Source: Eledone cirrhosa
Lineage: Eukaryota
Direction of reading: 5' to 3'
DNA length: 64,000 nt
Assembly: GCA_964016885.1 (NCBI GenBank)
Contig: OZ024741.1
Coordinates: forward strand, 276,272,001-276,336,000
A model generated the notes under the pieces. The model saw nothing but the letters and a program-made list of their open reading frames with translations. It did not search any database and was not told the DNA's origin. The position numbers and the translations under genes were made by a program. Shown piece by piece: positions 21,281 to 52,229 of the stretch (position 1 is the first letter of the stretch; the number at the start of each line of letters is the position of its first letter).

Positions 21281-22230
<950 letters not shown>

Positions 22231-27758: not shown

Positions 27759-27795
27759 TTCTTCTGATGAAGGACTAGTGTCCGAAATGTTAAAA
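27759..27795 (+). ncRNA. Minimal type I hammerhead ribozyme-like motif
   Basis: tt-CTGATGA-a-GGAC-tagt-GTCC-GAAA-tgtt-aa. Confidence 0.6.
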
Positions 27796-28807
27796 CCCTC
27801 TTTCTGTTATTTCAAGCGTTAAACAAATATATTCCTTCTATATACTGTACTGATTATGTTGTTATTTCTGTTCACCTTTTACATACATACATACAAGATA
27901 GCTGCAAACTCTGCTGAGAGTATTGCAATCGCTTGTCAGATTATAGAGTTTGGTGCACTTTTAGGCTATGGCCAGCCACACGAACCTGTAACATATCCTG
28001 AACAAGCAATGCCTGTGCTTTGAAGGTTTTTTAAGTGAGGAGAGGCCTTGCACTCGACCAATCCCACTCTCTTAGCATCGAAAACACTACCAGAAAGGAG
28101 AACTGGTCAACATCATCGGATGCTCCCAAAGCTGCAGGTTTTTTTTTCAGAGTTTCCTTCTCTTAGAAAGGTGTTGTGGCAACAACTGGGGGTCTTTCAC
28201 TCCCAGGTGAAAAAGAAACTACTATTTGGATGGCTGTTGACTCTGCTGAGTTCCTCTGCCCTTTGCCGGGTCTTGTATTTCATCCCACAGGGTGTCCAAA
28301 TATCACCCTCCTCACCAAGCTAGCTTGGTGAGGTTGCCGGTTTAGTGACCGATGATCCGACCATGAGACAGGTTGTGCTGGGTTACCATGTGAACAGTAG
28401 CACTCAAGAGCATCCTGACATACATATATATATAAATATATAGATATATATATATGTATGTGTGTATGTATATGTCATCATCATTGTTTAATGCCCATTT
28501 CATTTTCCACGCTATCATGGATTAGACGGGTTGTCCCATTTGAGGCAAGTTGGGTCAACTGTTTCTGGCTTGATTTATATGGCTGGGTGCCCTTCCTAAT
28601 GCCAACCACATTTACAGTGTGTGCTGGGTGCTTTTTGTCGTGACATCTACACGACCACTTTACAGTGCGGGCTGGATGTGTGTGTGTGTATATATATATA
28701 GTGACACACATGTATATACACACACACAAACATATATATAGCACCAACAACACTGCCACTATATAACATCTGCCTTCCTCCCTTGTTAGTATAACATGTT
28801 AACTTAC

Positions 28808-28923
28808 CAAACAGAGTATAATCAATATCTAACACCAAAAGCTTCTTGCCTTCTCTGGGTGGGTTTAAAATGTTCACATTGTAATCTCGGACACGTTTTT
28901 CAATCTTAGCAAGATGTTCCTCC
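28808..28923 (-). CDS. UBLCP1: UBLCP1 coding exon 4 (catalytic DxDxT motif)
   Basis: tgtag|...|gtaagt; [38 protein letters not shown], the FCP/SCP-type HAD motif I. Confidence 0.96.
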
Positions 28924-29757
28924 CTACAAATCAAAAATTGGCATACAGTCAAAAACATGCTAAGTTTTAATAGCTTCTGATTTAGGCACAAGGCCAACAA
29001 CTTTGGTGGGGAGGGGAAGTCGATTAAATCGACCCCAGTGCTTACTGGTACTTTATTTTAGCGACCCCGTAAGGATGAAAGGCAAAGCTAACCTCAGTGG
29101 GATTTGAACTCAGAACATAAAGGGCCATAATTTAGTGCCACAAAACGTTGCCCGGCACTCTACCGATTCTGCCAGTATACCACCCTTAATCAAAACAATT
29201 GTTTCTACTTTTGGCACAAGGCCAGCAATCACTCCAGTACATTACTGGTACTTTATTTTATCGACGCCATAAGGATGAAAGACAAAGTTAATCTTGGCAG
29301 GATTTGAACTTGGAATGTAAAGTGCCATAACTCCTATGCTGCAAAGCATGGTGTCTGACGCTCTACCGATATTGCCAATCCAACTGGATATTATAGTCAA
29401 AGACCACAAAGAATAAAAGTGTGTTCTAATCAATGTATCTATTCTCGGGTCTTGAATAATTGCCCCAACCCCCCATTAATTTTTTAGACTCAGCCCACTC
29501 CGCCTCCACTTTGCTTATTAAATTTTGCTAATCTATCTCCAGCAAAATTTTATTTTAATTTTCTTTAGACATGGCAAAAAAAGTACATTACTAGAAATCC
29601 CATACGTTATAAAATAAATATGATGGGTTGGAGTCTCAATATGTAAGCTAAATGACTAAGTCTGGTTTTTTTTTAAATCATCAGAGACAACCTAGAAAAA
29701 TTACCGATTTTCAAACACATCCACTTATTCCAACTACTATTATTTGGGACCCAGCAG

Positions 29758-30025
29758 TATCCCCACAGATGAAAATATATCCACCAAGAAAATTGGGAAA
29801 TTATCCAAATATAAAGATCTAGAGGTAGAAATAACCCATATATGGATGACGAAAACAGAAACAATCCCTATAATAATAAGTGCTCTGGGAATGATAAAAA
29901 AAAAACCACTCAGTCAGATACATAACCAAAACCTCAGGACATACAAACATATAGAGCATACAGAAAATAGCATTACTAGGCACTGTACACATATTAGGAA
30001 GTGTGCGCTCAATACAATAAAAATA
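29758..30025 (+). mobile_element. R4/Dong-type RLE LINE 3' fragment
   Basis: KLSKYKDLEVEITHIW..TIPIIISALGMIKK, then IQKIALLGTVHIL in a shifted frame. Confidence 0.75.
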
Positions 30026-30164
30026 TTTATTTTGGTCATAAACTGGCCCTGTAGAAAAATAGAAAAATACTAGGTAACAGAAATAAGATGGCTCTTCTTT
30101 GATATAGCCAAAGACCAACTTATCTTGTGGTGTTGTCTTATATATATATATATAGAGTGAGATA

Positions 30165-30915
30165 ACACTGCCAATCACTCCAATGATACAGCCAGTGACT
30201 TAAAACTGCCATGGCACAGCCAGTCATTCCCATGACACAGCCAGTGATGACTAAAACTGCTGTAACACAACCTGTGTGTTAAAACTGCTGTGGCACAGGC
30301 AGTCATTCCCATGACAGCCAGTGATGGCTAAAACTGCTGTGACACAGCCAGTCATTCTCATGACACAGCCAGTGATGGCTAAAACTGCTGTGACACAACT
30401 AGTGACAGTTACAACTGCTGTGACAGCCTGTCACTGTTAAAACTGCTGTGATGGCAAAAACAGCTGTGACACAGCAGTTATAGGCTGACATACAACCATT
30501 GGCAATGAAATGCTGTAACACAGCCAATCACTCCCTTGACACAACCAGTGACAGCTAAAACTACCATGACACAGCCAGTGATAGCTAAAAGTGCCATGAC
30601 ACAGCCAGTCACTCCCATGGCATAGCCAGTGACAGCTAAAACTGCAGTGACAGAGCTAGTGACAGCTAAAACTGCTGTGACACAGCTAGTGACAGCTAAA
30701 ACTGCCGTGACACAGCTAGTGACAAGCTGACACTGCTAGAGATAGCTAAAACTGCTGTGACACAGCTAGTGACAGCTAAAACTGCCGTGACACAGCTAGT
30801 TACAGATAAAACTGCTATGACACAGCTAAAACTGCTGTGTCAAAGCTAGTGATAGCTAAAACTGCCAAGACACTGCTGGTGACAGCTAAAACTGCCGTGA
30901 CAGCTAAAACTGCCA
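30165..30915. repeat. Degenerate approx. 30-bp minisatellite
   Basis: Unit gacacagc(t/c)agtgacagctaaaactgctgt. Confidence 0.88.
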
Positions 30916-31013
30916 TGGTGGAAGGTTTTTAGAGAAAAATAAACAATTTGTAAGATAGATGATAGAGCTAGGGGTGGTGGTTCAGTATCAAAAGAGTTTA
31001 ACTGATTTCTTAC

Positions 31014-31096
31014 TTATTTTCAACAGAAACCTCCTCATCTTCCATACCAAAATCATTGATGACATTTGAATTTTTAGGTAGCTCTTGGATCTGAGC
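31014..31096 (-). CDS. UBLCP1: UBLCP1 coding exon 3 (acidic linker)
   Basis: tctag|...|gtaaga; AQIQELPKNSNVINDFGMEDEEVSVENK; phases match both neighbours. Confidence 0.9.
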
Positions 31097-31346
31097 CTAG
31101 AAAACAAAAACAAACAAAATAGTCAACTGTTAAAAAGATGTTACATTATTCCTGGCTGCTAACATAGGTAGAAATCTTTAAATAAAGAATTAATCTAGGT
31201 GTAAAATATTTACTCAAAACTTTATACATACATACATACACATTATATATATATATATATATAAAGCAACCATGCCCTTAAATTGAGATTTTGGCATAAG
31301 TTGAACACGTTTTATCATGCTAGTATGGAAAATAGATGCTAAATTA

Positions 31347-31390
<44 letters not shown>

Positions 31391-32238
31391 TCTTTTCCAT
31401 TATAAAGCATGAAACTAATAAAATATTGTTTTTGTAATTCTGTTTGTCATTTCCTTGAAACACACACACACATATATATACATATGCGATATCACAGCAT
31501 CTTAGTGGATACTTTGAGGATCTAAGATCAAGGGTATACAGGAGAGGGTGGAGCATGGCCTATTATGTAATAGAGTTGTAGCCACTGTAGATAATAATAG
31601 CTTTGGCTTTATTATATAGAAACTAATATGACAGCTGCAGCTTGATAACATCTAGGTAGCTATTAGGTTGTGTAAGTTGACTTTGGGAGAATAGGGGGAC
31701 CACATATGATTTGATGAATTTAGAGGGTGAGTAAGGTTTGTTTGGCAGGAGTCATGGGTACAGTTTAGGGTATTTGCTGAGACTGATTGGAGCAATATTC
31801 TCTTATTTTTATATTGTACTTATTTATCCCAATTTACTGGAATTGACATGTGATATGTATGGATGATAATTGCTGGGTGAAGGGGTGCCAGGAAATTTCA
31901 GTGGAAGGGAGCCACAGTAGAGAAAACCAAGAAAGACCTGGGCGAAGGTGGTGGGAACTGATCTTAAATCACTGAAGCTCACAGAGGAGATGATGAAGCA
32001 TGTCGCTGAATGTGTCTTTGCCAATCAGCTGGGTACAATTTAAGTAGACAGCGGAACCCGACCCCACACCATGGTACATACTTCTGACTTCCAGTTTTAA
32101 GAGGATGCGAGACAAATCTTCCTCTGGCTAGGTTACCATCTTATTGTAGTGATTCTCTTTGTCATCATGAGCAAAACTGACTCTAGTAAACACTGCAGAG
32201 CAACACCAGAACACTCGCCAACTTTTACAAGTGAAAAT

Positions 32239-32276
<38 letters not shown>

Positions 32277-32288
32277 CAGAAGGCTTAC

Positions 32289-32380
32289 CACAACATCTTC
32301 TCTAGAACCCATCATTATTATTTTGACATTTGGTTTGAGGTTTAAAGTTCCAAGTTGAATTTCATCATCTGGTGGTCGAC
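32289..32380 (-). CDS. UBLCP1: UBLCP1 coding exon 2
   Basis: ttcag|...|gtaagc; GRPPDDEIQLGTLNLKPNVKIIMMGSREDVV. Confidence 0.94.
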
Positions 32381-35300
32381 CTGAAACAGTAAATAGTTAT
32401 CATTACATTTATGTCAGCTTTACCATGCTGGCATGGGTTGGACAAGGCTCTCTTGAAGCAGTTTCTTTCCAAAGCAGAATGCATTTCCTGACATTGACCT
32501 TTAGTTTATTTGTAAAGTATGGTGTATGGTATATGCCACTCATCTTCATCAAACTACTACGCTGCAGGATATCTTATGCTTGTGTGGGACATAAATAAAA
32601 CTTCACTACAATATGAAGATGCATGGTGACAGACACAAACACACACAGAAACATACAGTGTACCCCCAGCATCTGCAGCCCCAGTTATTCGCGGAATTTT
32701 CCTGAGAACCTAACTAATAATTGTTCATGGAAACAACTGCATATTCGTGGAATCGTAAATATCTTTCACAATTTTTGTATGGTATTTTTCGAGGCAATAT
32801 ATATTTTTTTTACTAATAACGATATGCGCTATTTGCTGGCCTATATTTTACATCATATTTTGACATTTATAGGCATTTTTATGGACCACATCCAATATTT
32901 GCAGTTTTTCACTCTTCACAGGTGCTCTAGTAATGTACCTCCCATGAATACCAGGAGACAACTGTGTATGTGTGTGTGTGTCATTTCATTTTATGTCCAC
33001 TTTTCCCTGCTTGCAAGAGTGGGACGGGAACTGATTCTGGCTTGATTTCCACAGCTGGATGCCCTTCCTAACACCAACCTCATTTACAGTGAGTGATGGG
33101 TGTTTTTTTGCCGTGGCACCTCCACGACTACTTTGCAGTGGAATGATAGGGACCCCAGTCCCTATCATCTCATTTCTACAGCTGAGTAAACTGGAGCAAT
33201 GTGAAATAAAGCGTCTTGCTCAAGGAAACAACACATCACCTGGTCTGAGAATTGAACTCACAACCTTTTGATTGCAAGGTCAATGCTCTAACCACTAAGC
33301 CATGTGCCTCCATATATATTTCGTTTTTGTATTTATTTTGCAAGGTTTCTTATCTGAAAACATGTTGAAACATTGTTATACTTTGTTATGGTACCAATAA
33401 AAACACATAAATTGAAGTAAAAACCTCAGGACCGGCATAAACAGTGTAATAGGATTAAACCTGGAACACCCTGATTATGAAGTCAAGTTAAAAGCCACTC
33501 AGAATTCCATATTTGGCATGTTGTCTATGGATTTGAGACCCTTCCTAACACCATTTTTTTTTTTTTACAAGAGGCACTGAGCATGTTGTCTATGATTAAG
33601 ACCCTTCTTTCCAAGGTGCACTGAGCATGTCTGTGACTTGAGGCCCTTCCTTCCAAGGTATACTGAGCATGTCTATGACTTGAGGCCCTTCCTTCCAAGG
33701 TGTACTGAGCAGGGTTTTTTTATTATCCCCAGTACTGTCATTTTATAGAGTGGACTGGGTGGATGCATTTCATTGTGGCACCAACACTAGAGAGGTTGTC
33801 ACATACATGATCGTCCAGATTGAAAAGATCTCCAGTCTCTCAAGGATATCTATATAACAGCTAACTGGTCAACCCTTCTAGTAGGTCAAGCAAACGTTAA
33901 AAGACAATGACAATGGTGATGATGATGATGATAGTAGTTAACTCCATAAAAAAGTAATAGTGTTCTTATCCATAAGGCCACAGATCTAGTACATAAAGGT
34001 CCCTAGTTGAAACTAAAGAATATGATCACAGGTCAGACTGATCAAAGTATTATTTATATTATAATCTTTGTATGTTTGTAAAGATTATGTGTCCTATAAA
34101 CACATACAAAAACAAAACAAATAAACCCATTCTACTTGGTGTATTTTGTATTCTACATTGTGTTGGTTCAAAACAGCACAAACAAGAGGGTAAATAGAAG
34201 GGTAATGGCAGAACTAGGATGAGTAGAACTGTTGGGGTGAGACTGGGGTAGCAGAGACAGTGGTGGGGGGAGGGTGATGCGAGAAAAACAGTGGAGGGAG
34301 GTGGTGGAAGGATCTGACTGTGGTGGTGGGAGAGAGATGGAAGAGAATCAGTGATGGTGGGAGGGAGATGGAAGAGAAACAGTGATGGCAGTTACTGTGT
34401 TTGCTATTGAGAAAGAGAGAGATTGTGTGATGAATAGTGACACAGATGGTGAATAGTAATAAAATGATGGGCCTGGGTTGAGAGAGAGAGAGGAAGAGAG
34501 GGGGGCTGGCAACATAGAAAAGGTGGTGCTAATGTGTAATCCCGCTGAGGTTGACTTTGCCTTTCATCCTTACGGGGTCGATAAAATAAAGTACCAGTAA
34601 TGCACTGGGTAATTGCTGGCCTTGTGCCTAAAGTAGAAACAATTATGTAGGGAGAGATCCAATACAATCTTTGAGAGAGAGAGAGAGAGAATGAATGATA
34701 AGGATGATGATGGGAGGGGGAGGGATTGAATACTATAGTCACTTAAACATCAGACAATTTTATTTCTGGCATCAGAAAACATCCTTGATCACATGATTAA
34801 GCATCAAATGAGAAAATAGGGAAGGGGTAAAGAAGGGCAGATCTGGCTGTATGGGAAAGGATTATAAAAGCCATAAATGAGGGGAAAGCAAGGATTAGAG
34901 CGAGGGGCTCTGAGACTAGAGCGCAGCAGTATTGGGGCTGCGCCGTGGACAATAGCCTGTGCGACACCCGCTGCAACAGCCACTCCACCTCGCAGCGCTC
35001 CTTCCTCAGACAGGTGCATTACTTCTATTATAAATGATATTAACCCTTTTGATCCTAACATGGCCAAAAATGGCTCTGGTTCTATGAAACAAAACTAGTC
35101 AATTTAAAAGGTTTCTATTTAACCCTTTTATTACCAACCTAGCTAAAATTGGCTTTGGTTCTATGAAACAAAGCCACCTATTTTAAAGGGTTCCTATTTA
35201 TATTTAAATCTTCCAAGATAATTTTATATAAGAACCACGTGTTAAGGTACTATCTTGGTAATGAAAATAATTAATGATTTTAGTAAAGAATTCAAAATTC

Positions 35301-36758
35301 TTCATTAATTGATTGAAACAGAGTGTATTCCATGAAAAGGTTAATAAATGTTGGCTCTTTTAGTTATTCTTTATATCACTGATAAATATAGTTTATTTTA
35401 TTCCACATTAAACAGGACTGAGAGGTGGAGAGTAAGTTTGTTGGCAGTGGAGGATACTCATTCGTACGTCACTTTCGCACAAGATTTGAGTGCCTTTTTC
35501 AATCCATTCATTTCATATAATAAATAAGTTTTATACTTGAGAAAAAAAATGCTTATAATTATGATGTCAAGATATATGCATCATCATCATCATCATCACC
35601 ACCGTCGTCTACTTAACGTCCACTTTTCCATGCTGGCATGGGTTGGACAGGATGTTTTGAGTCAATATTTATAGCCTGCCAGATGCCCTTTCATGACGCC
35701 AACCTACTTAAAAAAGACGCAGGGATACAGTTTATCTATGCTTGTGAGGGCGCTTGGCTGTTCCAGCGCATAACCCGAGGTAACGCTGCGAGCGTGCTGG
35801 CTTGCCTCAAAAATTATTAGAGGTTTCCCAGTGCACCTCGCGATATTGTTATCTTTTGTTCTGGCAGCAGTTCGTTTGTCCACCCCTTTAACCTGCCTTT
35901 TGTTGTATGTGGTCCTAGATGTGTGCATTACCTGCTTGTGTTTTTTCTCTTTCTATTAGTAATATTATGTTGTATACTAACTAGGAAATAAATATTTTAA
36001 ATATTTCAAGTTTATCTATTCTGAAAACTGGGATGATACACACAGCATAGTTGCACATTCAATCAAATCCAGCCGAAGTTAACTTTGCCTTTCATCCTGA
36101 CGGGGTCAATAAAATAAAGTACCAGTAATGCACTTAGACAATTGCTGGCCTTGTACCAAAAGCAGAAAACAATTATTTCTATCAACTTAAAAAAAAATGT
36201 AATGATATTTCTTTGCGACAATCTTTTCAATAGTGTAAGTCAACGTCTGAAACCTGTAGATTCACTCATGTCACCATCACACCACCAACATACTCCACAG
36301 CAAAACAACAATCCTATTGTCTTTAGAACATTTCTATTGTATGGTCATAACCAATAGTTTTAAAATAAATTTTCTATAAATTATAATTTGATAATTGTTT
36401 CTAATTATAATTTGATAATGATAAATAATCGGATTTTGTCATTTTTTAAGATGTTAGAAACATTACAGTGTATAATTTCTAAGTCAACAATCTACAGTTT
36501 TGTATATATATATTTTCATTCAGATTTTATAATGAAATGCGGAGGTCAAGGACGATTTCTGACGCACGTATTCGGTGAGCTTTCACGTATTTCCCACCTA
36601 CAGAAAATATATGATTATATATTGAAATAAATATGCAAAACATGTTTATATCCTCATTTCTTACGAATGTTACAAGTCTGTACATTTAATTGTACCTACA
36701 TATTATCACCATAATAAACCTAACGATTAGTATTGATATAGTTTTTAAAAAATAAGAC

Positions 36759-36822
36759 GTGTCGACCGGGAGTTGAACCCGAAACAGTGTTTAGAAGGCA
36801 ACTGTGTTAACCCTTACTCCAC
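36759..36822 (-). pseudogene. tRNA-Gly(TCC)-like relic or SINE head
   Basis: gtggagtaagggttaacacagttgccttctaaacactgtttcgggttcaactcccggtcgacac aligns by eye to tRNA-Gly-TCC; 5' acceptor strand missing and anticodon arm mismatched. Confidence 0.5.
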
Positions 36823-38036
36823 TGAGGGAGCCTCGCAGTGGTCGTTCGATATGCTAGAAATAGCTGCCAAATCACCCCTCCCCCAAATTACACTCATCAT
36901 TTGGGATAATCACCGAATGAGAGAGCCTCGAAGTGGTCGCTGACCTGCTAGAAATAGTCACCAAATCTCTCCCCACAAAATTATACCGTTACCATTTTGG
37001 ATAATGACTGACGGAACCTCGAAGTGGACGCTCGATCTGTTAGAAATAGCTGCTAAATCTCTCATCCCCCACCTCAAATTACACCTTTACCATCGAGGAT
37101 AATGGCAGTCTTACAGACTCATAAAAGTAGGCATAGTTGCCACATCTGAAATGTGTCGTCGGTGACAGGTCTTGCTAGATAAGGGGCCGACCTACTGGAG
37201 ATAAACAACACTACCAACGACTGATAGTAATTCTTTCATTGTGTGAAAAAAAAAGGGAGTAAGAGTGGGGAGATAGATTTCATTTTTTTTCTTCTAAACT
37301 ATATATCTCCCATTACATGAAATGATAGTTTTGGAAAATTCTACGCCTGAAGAAACACGGAATGGAACACATACCAGACACGAACACAACATGAATCCAT
37401 GAAACAAGACCGTGGCTTTTCTAAATGATTTCTCTTTTGTTTGACATTTTTCCCTCCCTAATAAAAACATGTTTACATTTTCATCACTGATTAGGAGAGA
37501 TGCCCTAGGTTTATACTGTTAAATGACTCTAGGCTAAGAATTATTTCGATTTAAAGTTTTACCTTTTTATATGTAATTTAAAATGACAATTATAAGGAAT
37601 CGTGGGGGGGGGGGGGGTCCATATCAAATGCGGTATTTCTGATATAAATATCAAATGCACAACGATCTTAACTATATCCACCTCATATATATATTAACAT
37701 GTTGAGTTAAAATCTCACAATATTCCCTTATCAAATAAGCTTAAGGAAAAATGTTCAAGCTCTTTATTACACAGTAAAGAGAGAAGGACACACACATATA
37801 TATATGTGTATATATATATATATATTATATATATTTATTAATTACCAACACGAGTGTTAATTATATGCAAATTAGTATGTCTATTTCAAAATAATACTAA
37901 GAGCGAATGGGTACATACAAGGTAGGCCTTAAAATCGTGCAACAACACCTTATTAAATGTCTTGACGTATTAAATATATTAATGTCCATGTATGCTAAAT
38001 TGTTTTTAATGCTTTGGTGCGCGACTTACGGCCCAC

Positions 38037-38092
<56 letters not shown>

Positions 38093-39045
38093 ATATTATT
38101 TTATTCAGTGCACAAAGGAATTAATTTTTTATCTTGATTAATGTAACAATTATTTTCTAGCAAAAAGAAATCGCGTTGATGAAACTTCACCAAAAATGTT
38201 GGTGAAATCTCTCATCTTTCTTATTAAGATAAGAATATTTATTAAAACATTATTTACGTCATTTTAAGTCACTGTTTGGGGGAGCGAGCATCACACCTTA
38301 TTTTAATACATAGTAGATAGCAAATAAAACCAGTTGTTCCTTATTTTAAATAAAGGAGTTGAAAAGGGATGTTAAAGAATCGTTAATAGGACAAAGAAGG
38401 TGGGGGGGGGGATATTTTATAACTAATTTTAAACCGGTTAGAATGAATACAAAGGCTATTGAGACGGGGTTCTCCATACAGATTCGATTTTATTCAATTG
38501 TCCGTGTATATTACAAAAATACAAAATATCCTTATATCACTCAGTAAGGGGACCGACCCCCTTTTTGCTTACAATAGTGAGAATTGGAGAGAGCAAGAAA
38601 GACGGAGGCAGTGACGATGGGAACTTGATTCCTAATATATATATACATTATGTATACACACTTTATATATAAAATGTATACATACTTCAACAGCATTCTA
38701 ATCAAAGTATGTATACATTTTTTCTGGACATCGTGTGTGTGTGTGTATATATATATATGTATATTTATTTACTACACCACATATATACACAAAGATAGAG
38801 AGACTGAGAGGAACGGTTACAGCTTCATTTTTTCTTTCTTCTGCTGGTGGCTTGTTGGTGAGATAAGTGAGACTTTCAGATACATGTTATAATTGTGTAT
38901 ATAACATACACACACACACATATATATATACAGGGTGTCCCCCAAAATGAATACACACTTCAACAGCATCCTAATAAATATTGTCTGAACAGGTAATCAA
39001 AGTGTGTATACATTTTGGGGGGGGGACATCCTGCGCACGCACGCA

Positions 39046-39076
<31 letters not shown>

Positions 39077-39270
39077 CACAAATTTGATATAGAAATGGCT
39101 TCTACAGGACTACAACGGTTTCATTCGAAGGCTTTCCTGATGATTTCCTTCGAATGAAACATTTCAAGGCCTGTAAAAGCCATTTCTATATTAAATTTGT
39201 TGTTTACACTCTACTAATCTATTGAGTCCCTCACTTACTGTGGTTACCCCCGATTGAACCCGGGACTCAG

Positions 39271-39302
<32 letters not shown>

Positions 39303-39385
39303 TAGTTAAACAGGAAAAGATTTAAATGAAGAAAGCAACGTTAAAATAATATAAACATAGAACGGTAAAATCAATCTCTCCAAAC

Positions 39386-39548
39386 CTTTATAAGGTAATC
39401 CTAAAAGCTTCTGTCTGTGAGGGAGGACTCCAGTTAAGTTCTGTAGTTGAGACTTAAGGTCTCCGATACTGTTCGAATGTGTTAGATCAGTTAATTTGTA
39501 TTCGGTTCCACTCCAGCGAACACTGATTTCTACAATTGTATCTGCCAT
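39386..39548 (-). CDS. UBLCP1: Ubiquitin-like domain-containing CTD phosphatase 1, coding exon 1 (UBL domain)
   Basis: ATG at 39548; MADTIVEISVRWSGTEYKLTDLTHSNSIGDLKSQLQNLTGVLPHRQKLLGLPYK; donor g|gtttg. Confidence 0.93.
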
Positions 39549-39659
39549 CCTGAAGACAAGGCGACGATAACACAAGTGTTGGTGTGTATATATATATGTC
39601 TGTCTGTCTGTTTGCCTGTGTATATATGTTATTTAACAAAAACAAGAGGGAGGAGACAT

Positions 39660-40084: not shown

Positions 40085-40428
40085 AGCCCCCACCCAAACC
40101 CTCGGTCACTAATGACCATGGGATTTGCACCTAGAAAGTTTCCCTCCGAGGCACAAAAGTCTGGGCAAGGTTGTTTGTGGGAAACTACCAGTTGCCCATG
40201 CATACCAGTCTCTCCCTCTCCACGCCACCGATGTTGTCCAAGATAAAAGTAATGGCTGATATAGCTTGGCACCAGTGATATCGCAACTCATTTCTACAGC
40301 TGAGTAAACTGGAACAACGTAAAATTAAGTGTCTTTATCAAGAACAACGCAAACCCCCGTCTGAGAATCGAACGCACAACCTTACGATTGCAAGCCAAAC
40401 GCTCTAACCACTAAGCCATACGCCTTCA
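40085..40428 (-). mobile_element. tRNA-derived SINE with the same head but a different tail (copy at 11275-11590, +)
   Basis: A/B boxes, ttcttga..aagacact core, shared tail gcatgggcaact..aaactttctaggtgcaaatcccatgg. Confidence 0.8.
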
Positions 40429-41174
40429 CTAATAATTGTTTCTACTTTAGGTACACAAGGCCAGCAATTTTGGGGGAGGGGACAGTCGATTAAATCGACT
40501 CCAGTGCATTTCTGGTACTTTATTTTATCGACACTGTAAGGATGAAAGGCAAAGCTAACCTCGGCGAGATTTGAACTCAGATAGTAAAATAATAATAAAG
40601 GTTTCTCATTTAGGCAAAAGGCCAGCAATCTTGTGGAAGAGGAAAGTCGATTAAATCAACTCCAGTGCGTGACTGGTACTTTATTTTATCGTAGGGATGA
40701 AAAGCAAAGCTAATCTCGGTGGGATTTGAACTCAAAACGCAGAGGGTCATAACTTTGTGCCACAAAGCATATTGTCCGACGCTCTACCGATTACTGCCAA
40801 TCCACCGCCCTTTCAAAACAATAATCTCATACATCCCTCACCCATAACCGTTCTTTTAAAGAATGCATATCTTCTTCCTTTACCCATACTGCAACTGTGA
40901 GAATCTATGTGAAACCCTTATCATATAAATACTCAAACATTAACACACCTGGTTATATAATTACACATGCTTATCTGGCATTAAAACTACTACAAATATT
41001 AATTCAAACACACACAAAATCCCTCTTGTCGTTCGTTTCCCCATTTACGCACTATACATATATGGTGATTACTTCATCTTTGCAGACGATTGACGTCTCC
41101 CTGTGCATCCCCACCAGCCGCCACCAACTCCAAACGTCCGTTCATGGCCTCTTGTGTGGTTTTTAAGTCCGAAT

Positions 41175-41543
41175 AGGCTATGTAGCCGGTAAACCCTAAA
41201 GGAACGTAACACACATATCGTTATAGTGTTTCACCAGCCACTTCCTTCTTCAATCATTCATAGATGTGTGTATATGTAATAATTATTTTGTATAATGTGC
41301 CTATGAATATGTATGAGTAGATGTGTGTACGTGTGGGTTTGCACTTTTGTTGTCTGAACCTGCTTATGTATTTACGTGTAAATGTGTGTAACAAAAGCGT
41401 AACATACGTTGCGAATGGACAACTAAAAGATTTTAACTTTTGATTTTAACAATTGATTTTGGAAAAGATTTCAAATTGTCTTAATTCCGATCGTAAAAGG
41501 CCGCAACTCGTAGTGTCTGACACTCTTACCGGCTACATAGCCT
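41175..41543. mobile_element. TIR element with a perfect 18-bp inverted repeat, superfamily unresolved
   Basis: aggctatgtagccggtaa / ttaccggctacatagcct; no clear TSD. Confidence 0.55.
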
Positions 41544-42438
41544 GGAAGTTTATTTTACCGGGACCGGCTACATGGTCTCTTTTTTTTAAATCCGACTTTA
41601 GATTTGCACGGTCTGCAGCAAATGTGACGGACAAAAGATGTGCCGATGAAGTTTCGTTTCTATGTTTTTATTGATTATCGACCAGTACGTGTGTTTCTCA
41701 GATGGAAGCTTTGAACCGCCTCCAGCACCGATTTGCTCACCAGATTCAACAAAACATAGAGTTTGTGGTGATTTGTACACTATCGGCCCTATCGTTATTG
41801 TTACTAGTAATACTATTAATACTAATTGTTGTCCCATATTGGTGGTGGATTGGCAGTATCGGTAGAGGGTCGGATACCATGCTTTGACGCTTAGAGTTAC
41901 AGCCCTTGCCATTCTGAGTTCAAATCCCGCCGAGGTTAACTTTGCCTTTCATCCTTACGGGGTCGATAAAATAAAGTACCAGCAATGCACTGGCCTTGTG
42001 CCAAAAGTAGAAACAACTGTTGACAATGCTGTCTTCTCCCACTTATTCCGGAGAGGGGCGTGGGAGGAAGAGTCCTCAAATACGCCTTTCAGTAGGTCCT
42101 GTCAGAAGCAACCGTCTCCAACTGATCCTGTTGGGTCCTCAGGCGAGACCAGTCGATGTCATGGATGTTGGGCCTGTTCCAAAAATATATTTCTATCTCT
42201 ATTTCATGCCGCCAAAACTCGCAATGGGCCTCGAAATGTCCTGGGAGGCATGGGATAGACGCATCAGATTGCGTATCCCGAGACCCCAAAGAGGGTTCGG
42301 AAGGGAGCAAACCTTGACAAATGCTGTGTGATTGCCTAAAAAATTATTAGAGAAGCTCCGATGGCCATTGTTACGGTGTGTGCTTGTGTGGGTATTATCA
42401 CCGTTTTTTTTTCTTTTTATTTCCCAGCTTTTCTTCTA

Positions 42439-43520
42439 TGAGGGTGGGCTGAATAGTTCATAGGCTAACTATGAAGGAGTGATGCTAGAACTGTAAAATC
42501 TTGCATGCTTTAATTTCAACTTTTCTTATTAATAACTGCATTGTTTCCCTCCAGGAAAACTGAAGACTTCAAAAGTAACTTGTAGCAATTTCTCTTGAAA
42601 ATGGACATTTGGCATCGTGTTGTTATCAAATACTTGCAGAAAAAGGGTTTAGTCCCGAAGGGGATGACATTTCATCAACAAGTGCATAAGTGGGCAGCTA
42701 AATTTAGGAAGGGATGGGAGAGTCTTGAAGATGACCCAAGGTCTGGACATCCTGCAACTGCCACCACCGAGGAAAACATTGATCATGTTCACTACATGAT
42801 GATGGATGATAGGCGGTTGACTATAAATAAAATAGCCAATGCTATTCCGTGAGAGAGTTTAGAATATTCTGTACAATCAACTTGGCACGACGAAGGTTTC
42901 TGTATGGTGGGTGCCACATTTTCTGACACCTGATCAAAAGCGCACTAGGCTGATCACATCACGGGCAAATCTGACATTGTTTGAGGCAGATCCAGCTAGT
43001 TTCCTTGAACGCTTCCTAACCCAGGATGGTGTTAGATTTAAAGCTTTGATCCAGAAAAAAGATATAATCCATGCAATGGAAGCACCTCTCCTCACCTGCT
43101 CCAAAGAAGGCCAAAGTTGTTTCATCTACAGGGAAAGTGATGGCCTCGTTTTTTGTTGTTGTTTTTATGCAAAAGGCATTGTGTTTATTGATTATCTTAA
43201 AAAGGGCCACATCATCAATGGAGAATACTATTCAAACTTGTTGAGGCAGTTGCCAAAGGATATCAAGACCAAACCCCCAGGAAAACTGACCCAAGGGGTC
43301 TTGTAATGCACCTGAGCACTGTACACAATAATTTCATTATTATTATTGTTTCATCAGGACGATGCCGCAGCACACAAGTCCTTGTGACTGTGGTTTTGGA
43401 CTGGTTAATCACCTCCTCTATTCTGATTTTGTCCCAACTGATTATCATCTGTCCCCCAACATGAAAACAACAAAAACAACAACACTTGGTTGGGAACCAG
43501 TATCGCAGTGATGTTAGCGT
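42439..43520 (+). mobile_element. Degenerate mariner transposase copy, right TIR not seen
   Basis: TA-tgagggtgggctgaatagttc left end; SLEDDPRSGHP, WVPHFLT, FLTQD and a decayed YSPDLAP-like block; frameshifts; interrupted by a CR1 tail at 43303-43346. Confidence 0.88.
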
Positions 43521-44759
43521 CTTAAGAAGAGCAAAAGAAAAAAAAGTTGAATTTGGTATCATTTGAAATTAGAATGTATAATACCACATTGTTTTTGTTT
43601 ATTTTTCTTACATTGGAACATCGCTATATGTTTGGTGTCGGGGTGTAATCGATTATATCAACTGTTACAATTTGCATTTATCCGGGTAAGTTGAAATTTC
43701 ATGTGTGAAGTGAGTGTCAATCTCTCGAGCTGAAATACATACGAGACTGAAATAGTTACATTTTTCAAGGGAAGTAACTCAAAACATCAAGGGAAATAAC
43801 TAAAAAAAAACAAGGGAAATAACTCCTTGTAATTTTAAAAATTTATTAAACATTATTGTATTTGGGCGCCATGCTTTGAAGCATAGAGTTACCTCCCTTT
43901 ATGATCTGAGTTCAAATCCCGCCGAGGTTAACTTTGCCTTTCATCCTTACGGGGTCGATAAAATAAAGTACCAGTAATACACTGGGGTAATTTCTGGCCT
44001 TGTGCCAAAAGTAGAAACAATTATTGTATTGTTTTTATTCACAATTGTACGAATATTACAAATATAACGCACAAAATGATCAAAACGAGAGAAAAAAGAC
44101 AAAAAACAAAAACAAAAAAAAACATCAATTCACCACCAAGTGCATCAATCGGTCACACACAACAAGGGTCAACGAAAATTTATCTCTCTTCGCCTACTTA
44201 TTCCTAAGAGGGTCATGGTGGCAGAGTCCGCTAACATTCCTTCCAGCGGATCCTGCCAGAAGCAACCGTCTCCAAATGATCCGGCTGGATTCCCAAGCGA
44301 GACCAGCCAAGCCCATGGATGTTATCCAACTGTCTTGCTCGGGATCTACCATAAATGAAAAAAAAAAAAAAAAATAAATAAAAACTTTATATTGATCTAG
44401 CCATCAACGTATATAGCTGGACGTGAAGAAATACCACGGTTGTTGACAACCAAAACACAATTACTCTGACATGTTTGTACAATTACATATAATTTTGTTG
44501 ACATAATTTATCATCTGTGGACCAATACATAAAAATATACACGGTATATTTTGATGTAAATATGAAAATAAACGGAATTTATTTTGTTATGTGTTATACA
44601 TAACCATATTATGTCAACTATATTTTACAGATTGAAGTTATACAATGATGGAAATATAAAAAAAAAAAGATAAAGACAAAATTAAGTAATGAAAAAAGAG
44701 GGAAGGGCTTTAGCCCTTCCCTCTTTTTTCATTACTTAATTTTGTCTTTATCTTTTTTA

Positions 44760-45015
44760 AGGCAGATCTGGGTGTAGAGGAAAGTAAAGGAAAGGACTAT
44801 AAATGTCATAAGAAGAAAAGGAGGGAAAAGACAAGGACTATTAGGCAACGGAAGAAAGAGAGGGGAGGGGAGAGGGTGATAGACTCTGCGCCTTGGTCGG
44901 GGCGGTATTTCGGCTGTGCCCGTGGACAAAACTACAAAGGTGTTTCCGAGGACAATAGCCAGTGACACCTGCTCAACAGCTCCCACGGGGCTCCTTCCTC
45001 AGACGGGGAGCTGGC
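44760..45015 (-). mobile_element. Second CRE-like family 3' fragment (copies also at 34800-35020 on - and 3670-3990 on +)
   Basis: QVSLAIVLGN and EWLLQRVS..AIVHG motifs; shared ctccttcctcaga and gctgtgccc.tggacaaaa blocks. Confidence 0.65.
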
Positions 45016-45354
45016 GTTCCGATTTTAATATACACACAAATGAGATTAACAATACTTAATTACATAAATATTTCACATAAAAATATAGAATCTTAACGAA
45101 AGAAAGAAAATGGAATTCATTTTATTTTGCTTCAACATCTAATGATTATAACGAAAGAAGTTTATATGTCTAAATTATCTCCTATTTACAACAGCAATTA
45201 CACTAGGAAGTATAAATTACTTCTCAATATGTGTGTCATATCGAATGAATAGAAGCAAACATACACACACACGTACACCAGGTCCGAATACAGAGGAGCC
45301 GAACTCCCGCTTTAATCGCCCCCATCTCTCTTTCGCCTTCCCCATGTTTCACTA

Positions 45355-45933
45355 TTATGAGCAAATGGGGTCCCCACGCGCTGACCGCCCCACGGCCCCG
45401 ATGGACAGAATGGAGAAGGCGTTTTCCCGGAGGATGGTGAGGAAGATGCGTTGGAAGAGCCATTTCATCTCGCGAGACTCACACTTGCGGGTAGCCAGCT
45501 CAGCGCCTATGGTGGTGAGTAGGGAAGTAGCCCTAGAGCCAAGGGCACCAGAAGTTTCCACTGCTAGGGTCTCGACTGCAAACCTGTCCGAGAGCGACCG
45601 ATACTTGGAGAGTTTACCTTCCTCAGCTCGAAGTGCAGCAGAGCCTGAGTTAGTCGCAGACTGCACCAGGTTGTCACTGGAGAATGTGTCGCTGCCTATG
45701 GCATCCCAGACGAAGGGTTTACCATCGTAGAACGGAAATATGGTCATGTCGTCTGGCCTTTTGCCGTCCGTTTGGTCCGGCCCCACGGGCTCGAGCTTGG
45801 AGGGGAAACCTGCAGCATCCAAGCCATGCTTTATGATTTCGTTGAGTGCAGCATGGCGTGGAAGGCGGCCGGCACTGTAGCGACAGGAAAGCGGTTGTGG
45901 GCCGAAAGGGTCTACGGTCGATCCGCAGCGACA
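45355..45933 (-). mobile_element. CRE-like non-LTR retrotransposon C-terminus (Zn knuckle plus restriction-like endonuclease)
   Basis: In-frame CRCGSTVDPFGPQPLSC..RHAALNEII..DGKRPD..WD..AEEGKLSKY..LAVETSG..WLFQRI..LRENAFSIL, the RLE domain signature. Confidence 0.85.
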
Positions 45934-46856
45934 TTAGTTACCAACTATAATAATAATGAATGAGTGTATATTCATTTATTTATATATTTGTCCATCCCGC
46001 ACTGAAAGGGAAATGACTGAGGAAGTAAGGGGATGCTGAGAAACTATAGAAAACAGCGACCAGCGTTCTAAGATTCACTCCATTAGTGTGTGTATATGCA
46101 ATTAATTGGCGACACACATTGGCTATTCTCATTGCATGTTTGTGTGGATATATTTATACTTGTGTGAGTGTATATCATGACTCGTACACTTTACTTTACT
46201 GACATTTGTACATTATTGTATGTACTATACATGCACATTTGATGAGTTGTAGTGCACAATAATTTTCATTATTATAAGCTATTATCTTGGTCACCTATGT
46301 TAGTTCACGAACGCCTCTTACCACGAACAAATCGGTCGACGGACAATTTTTCCAAACATAAAACATCTCGGGTGACGAGCGGTGTCTCAAATAAGGGACA
46401 AGCAAGCCGTCAACAACGGTTGGCAACAAGCTCGAAATGTCAGCAGGAAAGCGTCACTTGCTGTGTAGTTAGTTACTATAGTGATATCTATCTGTCTTTC
46501 ACAGACAGTCCCTCTCTCTCTCTCTCTCACTCACTTTATTTCTCTCTCAACGTTTCGTATGGGAAAATATAGTTTCGACTTACGAACATTTTGGATGACG
46601 AATGCCCAAAAGGAAGGAATTAAGTTCGTGAACCGAGGTTCCACTGTATTCATGTTAATTATGTTCTGATTTCAATTCCCACCACTAAATTTTACTTTGC
46701 TTTTCATCACTATATTGGCATGAGGATAGTGATAAAAATAAGTACCAGTAATACAATGAGGTAAATTTAAATCACTATTCTCTCAGACATTTCTGATAGG
46801 CAGGGAGGCAGGCAGGTAGGTAGATAGGTAAGTTGGTAGGTTGGTAGATAGATAGC

Positions 46857-47116
46857 TATGGTGGTGTTGTGGTGCTGGTGATGATTATGGTGGTGATGGT
46901 GGTGTTGATGATGATTATGGTGCTGATGGTGGTGATGGTGATGGTGTTGACGGTGGTGGTGGTAGAGGTGGTAGTGGTTGTGTTGACGGCGGTGGTGGTA
47001 GTGGTGGTGATATTGGTGGTAATGTTGATGATGTTGGTGGTAGTGGTGGCGGTAGTAGTGGTGGTGGTGGTGGTGGTAGTAGTAGTGGTGGTGGTGTTGA
47101 CGATGGTGGTGGTAGT
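46857..47116. repeat. (GGT/GAT)n microsatellite
   Basis: Imperfect trinucleotide run. Confidence 0.9.
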
Positions 47117-47554
47117 GTCAATAATATTTTTATTATTGAAAATATTTTTTCTTTTATTCAAAATAGAAGAGTTTTAATTCATTTTGGGATTTAATAGTTT
47201 TTTTTTAATATGTTGTTTTTATATTATCACATGTCTACAGTCATGGAAACTCTTCATCAGTGAGAGAGAGGGGAAGAGGTTGAAGAAGATGGATAAAGGC
47301 AGAGGATGAGGAGGGAGGGAGAGAGAGGGTAAAGAGGAGGAGAAGGAGGAAGTGAGAGAGACAGAGAGGGGGGGGAATGATGACAGAACTGATGTTAACC
47401 ATCCTCATTCTCTTCTTCTTCTTCCTCCTCCTCAACCTCTATGTTCATTTAACACCATTTTGAAAAATCTATTTTAGGGATGGAAAATTAGAAAATTAGA
47501 TTGTTTTTTATCTTATAAAACAGTATTTTCATTTACTTGCAATATGTGGCAATT

Positions 47555-48010
47555 ATCTTCTTCTTCACTCACTTATTTCTGACAGGGTCATGGGGCAGAG
47601 TCCCCAAATACTCCTTCCAGCCATCCTGTCAGAAGCAACCATCTCCAACTGATCTAGCTGGATCCCCAAGCGAGACTAGATTAGCCAAGCTCATGGATGT
47701 TATCCAACCATCTTGCTTGGGGTCTACCCCTGGGTCTCCTGCCGGCTGGTTTTGCCTGTTAAATCTGTCCAGCAATTCTTTCCTGAGACATTCTAGCTAC
47801 ATGCCCGTAATATCGGAGCTGTGATCTCTCAATTTGGAGAAGTAGCAGGGTCACTTATCTCCGAGCTACACACTTTATTGAGTAACATTACTCCGAACAG
47901 CCTTCGGTGGAACACTACTGTGGCCGCTTGTATTCACGATCGTATTCTTTCTGTCATTACCCAAAATTTATGACCATACGTAAGAGTTGGCATGAATACT
48001 GAATTTAAGA
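47555..48010 (-). mobile_element. Second RTE-like LINE family, 3' fragment
   Basis: Minus strand reads like SVFMPTLTYGHKFWVMTERIRS; shorter copies of the same 3' end at 42030-42180 and 44185-44350. Confidence 0.65.
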
Positions 48011-49467
48011 TAGTGTGTTTGGTTTTTACACCTACCTCAGTAACCAGAGAGTAATTATATTAAATAATAAAATGTCAGACAGGTAACAAGTGACAACAAG
48101 CAAGAGGAGAACATTTAATGTAAACAAATACTATAATAATAATAATTTTTCTACTTTAGGTAGAAGGCCAGCAATTTGGGGGGGTGGGATAAATCGATTA
48201 AATCGACCCCAGTGTATTACTGGTGCTTTATTTTATTGTAAGGGTGAAAGGTAAAGCTAACCTTGGCAAGATTTGAACTCAGAACTCATAACACTATGCC
48301 ACAAAGCAGAGGGTTCAACGCTCAATTGATACTGCCAATCTGCTGCCCTAATAATAATAATAATAATTGTTTCTACTTTTGGCAAAAGGCCAGCAATTAT
48401 CCCAGTGCATTACTGGTACTTTATTTTATCGACCCTGTAAGGATGAAAGGCAAAGTTAACCTCGGCGGGATTTGAACTCAGACCGTAAAGGGACGTAACT
48501 ATGCTGGGAAGCATGGTGACGAACTCTCTACCGATACTGCCAATCTACTAATAATAATTGTTTCTACTTTTGGCACAAGGCCAGCAATTACCCAGTGCAT
48601 TACTGGTACTTTATTTTATCGACCCCGTAAGGATGAAAGGCAAACTTAACCTCGGCGGGATTTGAACTCAGAATGGCAAGGGCCGTAACTATGCATCAAA
48701 GCATGGCGTCCAACCCTCTACCGATACTTACTATGATAATAATAAACATTACAAAGACAAGTTACACCATGAAGGTGGGGTTTACATAGAAATGAGAAAA
48801 TATGGGTAACAAGTATATATAGTATACAAGACATTCAATTCTATTGGGACAGAGAGCTGAATACATACAACTAATTGAGGAACCCCACATATCCACAATC
48901 AGTTTGACCACCAAAGGTGGGTGCTCTCTCCCAACTGACATTGTTTGACATAGAGTCACAAGCTGAGAGCAGACTAAATCATTCTCACCATTTTCCCTAC
49001 TTTCAACCACCTTTTGGTAAATTTACTGGAAGAGAACACCTCCCTCGCCATCCCCCATTCCAGATGAAAATTGAAAAAGTCAGCAAGATCTTAACTGAAG
49101 AGGAACGTGCTGTCTTCAGTTCTTTTGGCCTTGTCCACCACACAACCTCTTTCACCATAGCCACCAATAATTGTTCTGATTTAGGCATAAGGCCAACAAC
49201 TTTAGGGGAGGGAAAAGCAATTAAATTGACCTCAGTGCATTACTGGTACTTTATTTTATCGACCCCATAAGTATGAAAGGCAAAGCTAACCTCGGTGAGA
49301 TTTGAACTCATCCATAGCCACCAATAATAATATCTCCACACTGACCACGTTCCTTCGTCATCTCCTCTGTGAGTCAGCAATTTGAGGTCAGCTCTCACCA
49401 CCTCTGCCCAAGTCTTTCTTGGTCTACCTCTACTGTGGCTTCTTTCCACCCATATACATACATACAT

Positions 49468-49544
<77 letters not shown>

Positions 49545-49554
49545 TATAAATATA

Positions 49555-49612
<58 letters not shown>

Positions 49613-50473
49613 TTTAAACCCATGCTAGCGTGGAATATAGACGTTAGATGATGATGATGATATATATAAATATATATATAATTATATATATGTATATATC
49701 ACGATGCATTCCATGAATATGAACATGACAGAGACATTTTTGTTTCTTATCTTGGAGTTCAAAATATGTAAACTATACATAGCAACTCATAGAACCACAC
49801 ATACATACATACAAGCATACATATATCCATACAAACACACATACATACAAACATACATAAATGCATACATTCATGCATACATACATACCTATCTACTTTC
49901 CTCCCTCCCTGCCAACATACATACATGCACATATACATACAATCATGCATGCAAACATACATGCATATACAAATATAAATATACATACATGCATACATAA
50001 TACATACACAGTACTTAAACCATAAGAAATTGTCATAAGAAAAGAACTTTCCAGATACTAATAACTTGTGAGGGTCATGCTGCCAATGAAAACACACGCA
50101 CCAGTTAATTACTAGTTAGTTAACTAATCCATTCATCAGTTAGTTTACTAACTGGGTGCTTGTTTAATTATCTTATTTATTTTTAATTGTTGAAGCTCTT
50201 TCATCACACATACTGCGACCTTCTCAATGACTATTCTTGCTCCACTGTGTCTCCTCTTTGTTCTGATCTTGTTCTATTTACTACATCTTGTCTTTATTGG
50301 AAACATATATAGTGTCAACTTTTGAGAGTAAATAAATGAATTGCTTTGCCGAACAATTAACAGTGTGAGTTTGTAAATATATCTGTATATATATATATAT
50401 ATAAGTTGTAATAAAATGAAAACGAAATTTCATTTCTCACTCTTAGTACAGCACTTACTTAAATGTAAGTATG

Positions 50474-50518
<45 letters not shown>

Positions 50519-50728
50519 ATAATAATAAATTTGAAGACTATATATATATATATACATATATTTACAAACTCACACTGTTAATTTCTGCTTTCACCCTATT
50601 ACGGGATCTTTTGAGTTTCAGAAGATCCCGTAACAGGGTGAAAGCAGAAATTCTTTGCTTAAACTTTAATCTGAACTAATAATAAGTATTTGCTCTATAG
50701 GTTTATGTATATATTTTTTATATATATC

Positions 50729-51166
50729 TGGGATGAGGTGATAAAAGCCGACCATACCCAATTACACCTCTCAAAGGCGATGACACACGACCGTGACCTC
50801 TGGTGTCACACAGTAATACAGAAGACCCCCCCCCCCCCCATGGGTACAAGCCGAAGCTGAAGCATATAGACAATATGGCCCCACACCCTCCCACTGTAAA
50901 GTGGTCGTGGAGGTGCCACGGCAAAAAAGCACCCAGCCCACACTGTAAAGTGGACGTGTAGGCACCACGGAAAAAAGCACCCAGCACTCACTGTAAATGA
51001 GGTTGGTGTTAGGAAGGGTATCCAGCTGTAGAAATCAAGCCAGAATCAATTCCCATATGAGCAAGGTATGGTCAGCCGACCGGACACTGCCCACAACAGG
51101 ACAACCTGTCTAACCCATGCTAGCATGGAAGAACGGGCGTAAAACGGTGATGATGATGGTGATGAT
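50729..51166 (+). mobile_element. Short 3' copy of the same RTE family
   Basis: Closely matches 55781-56200 (tgggatgaggtgataaaagccgacc... through the GAT tail). Confidence 0.88.
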
Positions 51167-51484
51167 ACAATCCTTATTGAACCTTCTTTGGATTTTTGTC
51201 TTTGTAATTATTATTACTATATATATATATATATATATACAAATGCCCAGTCCACACTGTATTGAGGTCATGTAGGTGACACAACAAAAAGCACCCAGCT
51301 CACACTGTAAATGTGTTTGGGGCTAGGAAGGGCATCCAGCTGTAAAAAAAACTAGCCAAAAACAGTCCTATATGAGCGAGACATGGTCACCCGACCCAAC
51401 TTATCTCTAATAAATGGGACAAACCCGTCTAACCCATGCTAGTGTGGAAGATACACGTTAAACGATGATGATAATAATACATAT

Positions 51485-51925
51485 ATCATCATCATCATCA
51501 TCATTTTACGTCCGCTTTTCCCTGCTTGCAAAGGTGGGATGGCTCCTATTCAGCACAGCATCTCTCCATTTGTCATGGTTCTTCGTCATCTCCTCTGAGA
51601 GTATCAGCGATCTGAGGTCTGCTCTCACCACCTCCGCCCATGATTTTCGTGGTCTTCCTCAACTGCGTCTTCCTTCTACTGGGATTTCTTGGCACTTCTT
51701 TACCCAGCGGTCATCCTCCATGCGCATCACATGTCCATACCAATGCAGTCTTCTCTCCCACACACTACAGGTTATCCCTCTTATACACAGTTTTTCTCTC
51801 AACTCATCTATGCTTGGTCGTTCACGCACATTGAGATTGTACACCCAACGAAGCATGCTTGCTTCATTTCTCTCCAGCCGCATATCCTCTGCAGTTGCTG
51901 CCCATGTCTCACTACCATGCAGCAT
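51485..51925 (-). mobile_element. RTE LINE 3' fragment
   Basis: MLHGSETWA...ERRLHWYGHVMRM, homologous to the C-terminus of the 53408 ORF; (CAT)n tail on the + strand. Confidence 0.88.
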
Positions 51926-52195
51926 CTATGTGTGTGTGTTTGAGTATAGAACAATGAAAATAAGACTAGTCAGAGGTAGATAGTTAACTAGTTCATCGTT
52001 TTACAATCCTTTCAGAGGGTCGATTGATCATGGAAGATCAATGTATCGACTAGCATGGTAGTAATTAGGTTACCACCTATTTCTGGTCTTGATATATATA
52101 TAAATTGAATATGCATGTGTGTTTTTCTCATTTTTCTATATTCCTTCTTTTTCTCACTCTTCATCTTTCTATTTCCTCTTTTATATCTAATTCTA

Positions 52196-52229
52196 TTGCT
52201 GATGAAAGACTAGTGTCTGAAACGTTCAG
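52196..52229 (+). ncRNA. Minimal type I hammerhead ribozyme-like motif
   Basis: ttg-CTGATGA-a-AGAC-tagt-GTCT-GAAAC-GTT-cag. Confidence 0.65.

Follow-up and report, generated by a model that had tools for sequence, protein, structure and literature searches.

The stretch of Eledone cirrhosa DNA analysed here (the window, 64,000 nucleotides of contig OZ024741.1) contains two hammerhead-like motifs. We conclude that, very probably, these motifs match the minimal type I hammerhead, each sits within a terminal repeat (pLTR) belonging to an abundant family of Penelope-like retrotransposons, and the copies in question are solo, non-coding, decayed and likely inert. Minimal hammerheads in metazoan Penelope-like pLTRs were reported by Cervera and De la Pena (2014, PMC4209133). 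As such motifs in Penelope repeats, molluscs included, have been published since 2014, the value of the present case as a discovery is small. It adds an abundant family set, put at about 11,000 motifs by a single descriptor, a caution that CpG decay can make two decayed copies look compensatory and, through the mapped termini of short copies, a modest test of element transcription and priming.

Copy 1 (27496..27889, forward strand) is the 5'-truncated 3' end of a subfamily B element, consisting of 3' untranslated region and pLTR, with 330 of 386 aligned letters (85.5%) equal to the 3' end of the full-length copy L117. It has no coding sequence, and a tblastn search with the element's frames gave no match in the window. 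Its minimal hammerhead motif (27760..27795, forward strand, numbered according to PMC4209133) comprises CTGATGA at 27764-27770, an extra A, stem II GGAC/GTCC at 27772-27783, GAAA and TGTT ending at 27791, with a stem I of TCTT/AAAA that includes a single C-A mismatch; the predicted cleavage site is 27791/27792. Copy 2 (52104..52326, forward strand) is a solo pLTR of subfamily A, flanked by (TA)n and (CA)n runs, and shares 189 of 221 aligned letters (85.5%) with the 3' repeat of L111, a copy bearing reverse transcriptase (RT). Its motif (52196..52229, forward strand) reads CTGATGA at 52199-52205, A, AGAC/GTCT at 52207-52218, GAAA and CGTT ending at 52226, followed by CAG. Stem II thus has an A-T instead of the usual G10.1-C11.1 pair, stem I (TTG/CAG) carries private changes, and cleavage is predicted at 52226/52227. 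Re-reading of the window confirmed the letters and positions given for both motifs in the initial annotation, and the common repeat noticed around them is genuine (27747-27891 versus 52183-52326, 76.6% over 145 columns). The stem III palindrome ACGT described there is intact in copy 2, but damaged to ATGT in copy 1. The stem I pairs that had been contrasted, TT/AA and TTG/CAG, both deviate from the family norm of four base pairs, TCTT/AAGA.

Genome-wide, the exact core pattern had 796 matches and the reversed pattern none, and we therefore conclude that the motif of the shared repeat is not due to chance; the descriptor check proposed earlier returned 10,975 motifs against one control match. 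The motif agrees with the consensus printed in PMC4209133, namely U-rich, CUGANGAH, G..C, GAAAN, palindrome and UH. Both copies and the family have the core CUGANGA ... GAAA ... UH, an unpaired base is present between positions 9 and 10.1, and G10.1-C11.1 occurs in 539 of the 796 matches and is kept in copy 1. The palindromic 15.1-16.1 stretch, without a loop III, is ACGT in the family, and the short stem I is that of the family norm in subfamilies A and B. The assignment to minimal type I hammerheads of the Penelope-like kind, with predicted cleavage after GUU, is thereby consistent with the published consensus. Shared with the motifs of PMC4209133 are the type I topology without loop III, the palindromic 15.2/16.2, the short stem I, the extra base after A9, G10.1-C11.1, and the occurrence of motifs in the thousands, mostly single and derived from truncated elements; the molluscan motifs of Lottia also share the C-G-U-U ending. 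Stem II has 4 bp here, in contrast to 7-8 bp in Schistosoma and 5-6 bp in the printed mollusc rows. The family was not found in the available part of that paper, and may already bear a name. The suggested search with Rfam hammerhead models was negative, both in the window at the gathering score and in four chosen loci at E values up to 5.

In 18 of 20 extended loci, an RT fragment precedes the repeat on the same strand by 0.9-3.9 kb; these include 12 of the 14 loci that had not been pre-chosen for this link. The RT domain was recognized as RVT_1 (E 3e-08); a Cx4Cx2C linker comes next, then a GIY-YIG-like motif whose Pfam E value is only 0.053, below the cut-off. Pfam gave no match on four other frames, a PDB search yielded nothing useful, and an Atlas search returned unnamed eukaryotic clusters only. 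L117 has the layout partial repeat, coding region, repeat, that is, a pLTR-ORF-pLTR partial tandem. Of 30 loci found via its 5' untranslated region, 21 have the repeat joined upstream, and three of these read into a complete upstream 3' end (manual count). Judging from this sequence arrangement, it is a coding Penelope-like element that has the repeat at its termini; every Penelope-like copy examined was broken. The earlier description of the family as non-autonomous is apt for the dispersed copies, most of which are short, solo and non-coding (one of 90 has coding sequence of the element 1.5-3 kb upstream), but not for the repeat as such. The order of RT, Cx4Cx2C linker and GIY-YIG, the partial tandems, the inverted copies, the bias towards insertion in microsatellites and the hammerhead close to the 3' end are shared with Neptune/Nematis-type elements as described in the available part of PMC8557442. 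Two Neptune features, the CX2-5CxxC linker and microsatellite targeting, are present; by the same description, the linker also occurs in Nematis.

The initial annotation had further claimed that both helices covary, and this did not hold within the family. In the 796 copies, the first pair of stem II was G-C in 539, G-T in 176, A-C in 60 and A-T in 21; independence predicts 20.0 A-T pairs, and no association was found (odds ratio 1.07, p 0.79). The C>T change in stem II falls in a CpG column, and divergence is 19-32% in all six CpG columns. In the first pair of stem I, 22 of the 24 copies with G2.1 and 37 of the 39 with C1.1 lacked the compensating change. Because covariation is lacking in both stems, we reject compensation: on these counts, the apparently compensatory base changes are independent mutations and decay, which would have accumulated after insertion without selection. 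In non-CpG columns, mismatches amounted to 69/732 (9.4%) in the core and 561/4512 (12.4%) in the flanks, so that the core is not significantly better conserved within the family (p 0.21), even though the inclusion of subfamily differences in the flank columns tilts the comparison toward the core. Two of the observations that the initial annotation had named as evidence against itself, absent covariation and a core not significantly better conserved than its surroundings, were thus made within the family. Just 5 of 68 sampled copies retain every core letter together with all ten pairs.

Between sister families, two-sided changes were seen, as expected if selection affected the active parents only. 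All 40 stem II cells are paired, including an A-U/G-C swap, and stem I is weak (52.5% of cells paired, only 1-3 bp); the comparison comprises ten hand-picked rows, obtained with a pattern fixing 15 core letters, and few independent events. We consider it highly improbable that the window copies themselves are working ribozymes under selection, preserved by compensatory changes. Both retain all 12 core letters, as do only 20 of the 68 sampled copies, and in copy 2 two pairs are changed on both sides, one of which, G2.1-C1.1, recurs in one further copy. Both changes of copy 2 occur singly far more often, however, copy 1 lacks the palindrome and one stem I pair, and the two copies are separated by 24 kb and represent different subfamilies. 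Copy 2 is moreover predicted to form a competing 10-bp hairpin (52212..52234, forward strand; MFE -12.6 kcal/mol, z -2.72), in which both the GAAA box and the cut site would be inaccessible. The predicted probability of the hammerhead stems is 6e-9 in copy 2 versus 0.002-0.012 in five other copies, and in none of six sequences was the hammerhead dimer the lowest-energy predicted dimer fold. That the repeat letters look hammerhead-like by chance is very unlikely: the negative Rfam searches, folding z-scores close to zero in intact copies and missing within-family constraint would agree with it, but the Penelope pLTR is the reported site of such motifs, four non-core features (extra base, G10.1-C11.1, palindrome and U-rich 5' side) fit the consensus, and stem II pairing persists across the sister families. 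From PMC4209133 and PMC11167929 we infer that, in active parents, cleavage after GUU/GUC would require either the pairing of two motifs via their ACGU palindromes or assistance from the protein of the element.

The ends of 90 dispersed copies bear on how the short ones arose. The cut site is crossed by 68 of them; 35 start in a 40-base zone at -165 to -125 and only two farther upstream. As just three have their 5' end at -3 to +5 relative to the cut, and the 5' repeats joined to coding sequence start at scattered places, ribozyme-made 5' ends were rejected. Reverse transcription likely begins about 99 bases past the cut site, where the repeat has its 3' edge, with (TA)n/(CA)n sequences as targets. 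It would then cross the uncut ribozyme, often as far as a fixed position, 125-165 bases upstream, which may represent the 5' end of the transcript. Genomic copies that span an uncut motif and have a fixed downstream end are likewise known for Poseidon of Anolis (PAc; PMC11167929), which also has a pLTR hammerhead, and such ends are expected from internal initiation on unprocessed RNA (PMC11167929). The ORF of PAc begins within the hammerhead, whereas a non-coding stretch follows the repeat here.

Animal non-LTR retrozymes (PMC7229834; bioRxiv 10.64898/2026.07.22.740005) are similarly short, non-coding and pLTR-related, with a type I hammerhead. The unit of about 245 bases and its low GC agree with the description in PMC7229834, and the 2026 preprint traces retrozymes to pLTRs. 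Nevertheless, a tandem repeat of this kind, producing small circular RNAs, is an extremely unlikely explanation: animal retrozymes form tandem arrays with canonical hammerheads, whereas the present copies are dispersed and solo, their motif is minimal and joined to a coding element, and in the fetched flanks only one of 90 has a same-strand neighbour and five have an inverted one.

The start zone of 26 of the 90 copies bears a CAAAATGG-type motif, mostly after microsatellite or unrelated DNA. This motif is similar to the L1 5' end as printed in a primer, and can be read as a YY1 site. Tentatively, the subfamily A solo copies may be a fossil record of the Penelope cycle. They would span the uncut hammerhead, from a fixed 5' end by the YY1-like motif, which is a putative internal promoter, as far as a fixed 3' end. 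They might then represent a SINE-like polymerase II offshoot that bears the ribozyme, or else evidence on a genome scale of insertion from uncleaved, internally primed RNA, for which in vitro evidence so far comes from one lizard element (PMC11167929). The narrow start zone, the L1-like motif and the absence of upstream coding sequence in 89 of the 90 copies could also indicate that the subfamily A unit of roughly 245 bases is a non-autonomous element in its own right, with an internal promoter and a short master RNA copied by the Penelope enzyme. We regard this as rather unlikely, since the subfamily A unit is continuous with the long RT-bearing copies L111, L112 and L114, and an internal RT start on an ordinary transcript (PMC11167929) leaves an equal footprint without a separate master. 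A further cluster of 5' ends at +13 to +20 (10 of 90 copies) was recognized post hoc, is partly attributable to alignment edges or TA microhomology, and was discarded.

Both hammerhead-like motifs proposed in the initial annotation are present with the letters given (27760-27795, copy 1; 52196-52229, copy 2), as read directly from the window sequence, and the common repeat around them aligns at 76.6% over 145 columns. The palindromic stem III ACGT attributed to both holds for copy 2, whereas copy 1 has ATGT. With copy 2 as the query, the 3.0-Gb genome holding the window returned 3,750 candidates, 40 of which were scored. The 28-letter core, in which three letters are variable, occurs 796 times genome-wide versus 0 times for the reversed control, and a looser motif descriptor gave 10,975 matches versus 1 in the control.

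An RT-like fragment was found upstream of one repeat copy and, used as a query, led to 30 loci. Among the 20 of these that were extended, the repeat lies 0.9-3.9 kb downstream of the fragment on the same strand in 18; six had been preselected for a visible repeat, and it was found in 12 of the remaining 14. Frames of the element match RVT_1 (E = 3e-08, best of three frames) and, weakly and under the cut-off, GIY-YIG (E = 0.053), with a Cx4Cx2C linker between the two regions; a Pfam search of four further element frames gave no match. Locus L117 consists of a partial repeat, a coding region and a full repeat. At loci matching its 5' untranslated region, the repeat is joined upstream in 21 of 30 by our count, and three of those 21 run on into the 3' end of the upstream copy. 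Judged from sequence, the element has the partial-tandem structure seen in Penelope-like elements, with the motif lying in their terminal repeat (pLTR). Both the linker and the (TA)n/(CA)n flanks are suggestive of the Neptune/Nematis type, following the description in passages of PMC8557442. Copy 1 (27496-27889) belongs to subfamily B and shares 85.5% of its aligned letters with the 3' end of L117, and copy 2 (52104-52326) belongs to subfamily A and shares 85.5% with locus L111; coding sequence of the Penelope-like element was not found in the window. In the subfamily B 3' region, a pyrimidine tract plus CAG at 27570-27590 (+) resembles a 3' splice site and is retained in L117. Introns occur in Penelope repeats.

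A 29-mer downstream of the motif had 684 matches, and the first 90 served as a motif-independent sample. These copies all finish about 99 bases beyond the predicted cleavage site, at microsatellites, and 68 of them span that site. Their 5' starts fall between -165 and -125 relative to it in 35 copies, while two extend further and three start within -3 to +5. At the -165 to -125 boundary, 26 of the 90 carry a CAAAATGG-type motif, a putative YY1 site. This motif resembles the L1 5' end, as far as a primer and the reference titles in PMC5860796 indicate. Only one copy has coding sequence upstream and one has a same-strand neighbour; the sampled copies are therefore not retrozyme arrays as defined in parts of PMC7229834 and of a 2026 preprint, and the tandem-array reading is rejected for this sample. 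For an Anolis element, sections of PMC11167929 describe initiation from an internal, fixed site, cleavage aided by protein, and unprocessed RNA as the main source of insertions. By analogy, we infer that reverse transcription would be primed at the 3' edge of the repeat and that copying would then go back over the uncut motif, up to the transcript start. Alternatively, a separate short master RNA may be the source of the short copies.

The compensatory changes claimed for both helices did not hold up, since the stem II pair varies independently among the 796 core matches and single changes in stem I are mostly uncompensated. The first pair of stem II is A-T in 21 matches (20.0 expected if independent; odds ratio 1.07, p = 0.79), A-C in 60, G-T in 176 and, by subtraction, G-C in 539. 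In the first stem I pair, the G of copy 2 occurs in 24 copies, 22 of which still have A opposite, and its C occurs in 39, 37 of them without the G. The double change was seen twice, one case being the window copy itself; as about 0.2 are expected in some 4,000 eligible copies (extrapolated by us from the first 100 listed loose-descriptor matches, 36 of which qualify), one additional case is unremarkable. Column counts used the 68 of 90 copies that begin 60 or more bases before the predicted cut, the 22 shorter ones being excluded, and gave no clear excess of double changes at any of ten pairs (4.9 expected and 5 seen for the first stem II pair). Non-CpG cells differ in 9.4% of the core versus 12.4% of the flanks (p = 0.21) and CpG columns in 19-32%; all 12 core letters are unbroken in 20 of the 68 copies, and all ten pairs as well in five. 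As read from these alignments, the pattern is one of neutral decay following insertion.

Copies 1 and 2 are both likely to be inert, by prediction. In copy 1, one stem I pair and the palindrome are both disrupted. For copy 2, folding predicts a 10-bp hairpin covering the GAAA box and the cleavage site and gives the hammerhead stems a probability of 6e-9. Neither lies near a partner of its own kind.

Minimal hammerheads of this kind are already known, molluscs included. The family motif agrees with the printed consensus of PMC4209133 and the Lottia rows of its supplement, and shows features named there outside the descriptor. The sections consulted describe such motifs as mostly single and probably derived from truncated elements, with no cutting by a single motif and weak cutting by dimers. 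Rfam hammerhead models matched neither the window nor four chosen loci. Sister repeat families share the 28-letter layout (L205, L208, L224, L201 and L226, each near 1501-1528), with stem II GGGC/GCCC or GGAC/GTCC, a GTC triplet and a stem I of only 1-3 bp; searching up to 1.5 kb from these motifs revealed no element coding sequence. Ten sister-family copies, chosen by hand and all with the common downstream block, keep every stem II cell paired (40 of 40), including a 5:5 exchange between A-U and G-C. Their first stem I pair alternates between U-A and C-G, and stem I as a whole is just 52.5% paired. This between-family pairing modestly backs the hammerhead reading, since the rows represent few lineages and were found with a pattern in which 15 core letters are fixed. 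Among the papers listed for hammerheads in octopus or Penelope elements, no title or abstract opening concerned this Penelope-like family. The Octopus vulgaris repeat annotation includes Penelope families, with 'ribozyme' and 'hammerhead' occurring 0 times in its main text, and a passage of the giant squid paper gives 235 Rfam hammerhead-1 matches.

More canonical-looking type I motifs occur in L118 (two copies) and L119, with stem II GTCC/GGAC, a 2-bp stem III and a GTC triplet, and other cores, ending CTAGT, in L120 and L128. A second, unrelated hammerhead-like family, arguably of greater worth than the pLTR motifs, has window cores starting at 39137, 53226, 56862 (-) and 56898. Its exact pattern has 23,075 genome matches versus 0 in the control, and its members frequently occur as inverted pairs a short distance apart. 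Inspection by eye shows a 4-bp stem III ACAG/CTGT round a loop with a CTAG palindrome, GTA as the cleavage triplet, a 6-bp stem I in which both strands differ among subgroups, and an unusual stem II whose first pair is U-U in place of G10.1-C11.1. In one of 30 loci (L259), the same strand carries a GIY-YIG frame (E = 3e-05) some 1.2 kb upstream. Shortly past the motif at 53226 begins a LINE-type open frame of 864 codons (53309-55903, +), in which RVT_1 (E = 7e-32) precedes a PHD finger (E = 3e-06), a pairing found again in three further loci. A tRNA-like match at 4019-4082 (+; 30.7 bits, barely over the Rfam cut-off) is probably the head of a tRNA-derived SINE. Another repeat has two window copies, at 10185-10238 and 21286-21339 (+), both starting CTGATGAAAT.
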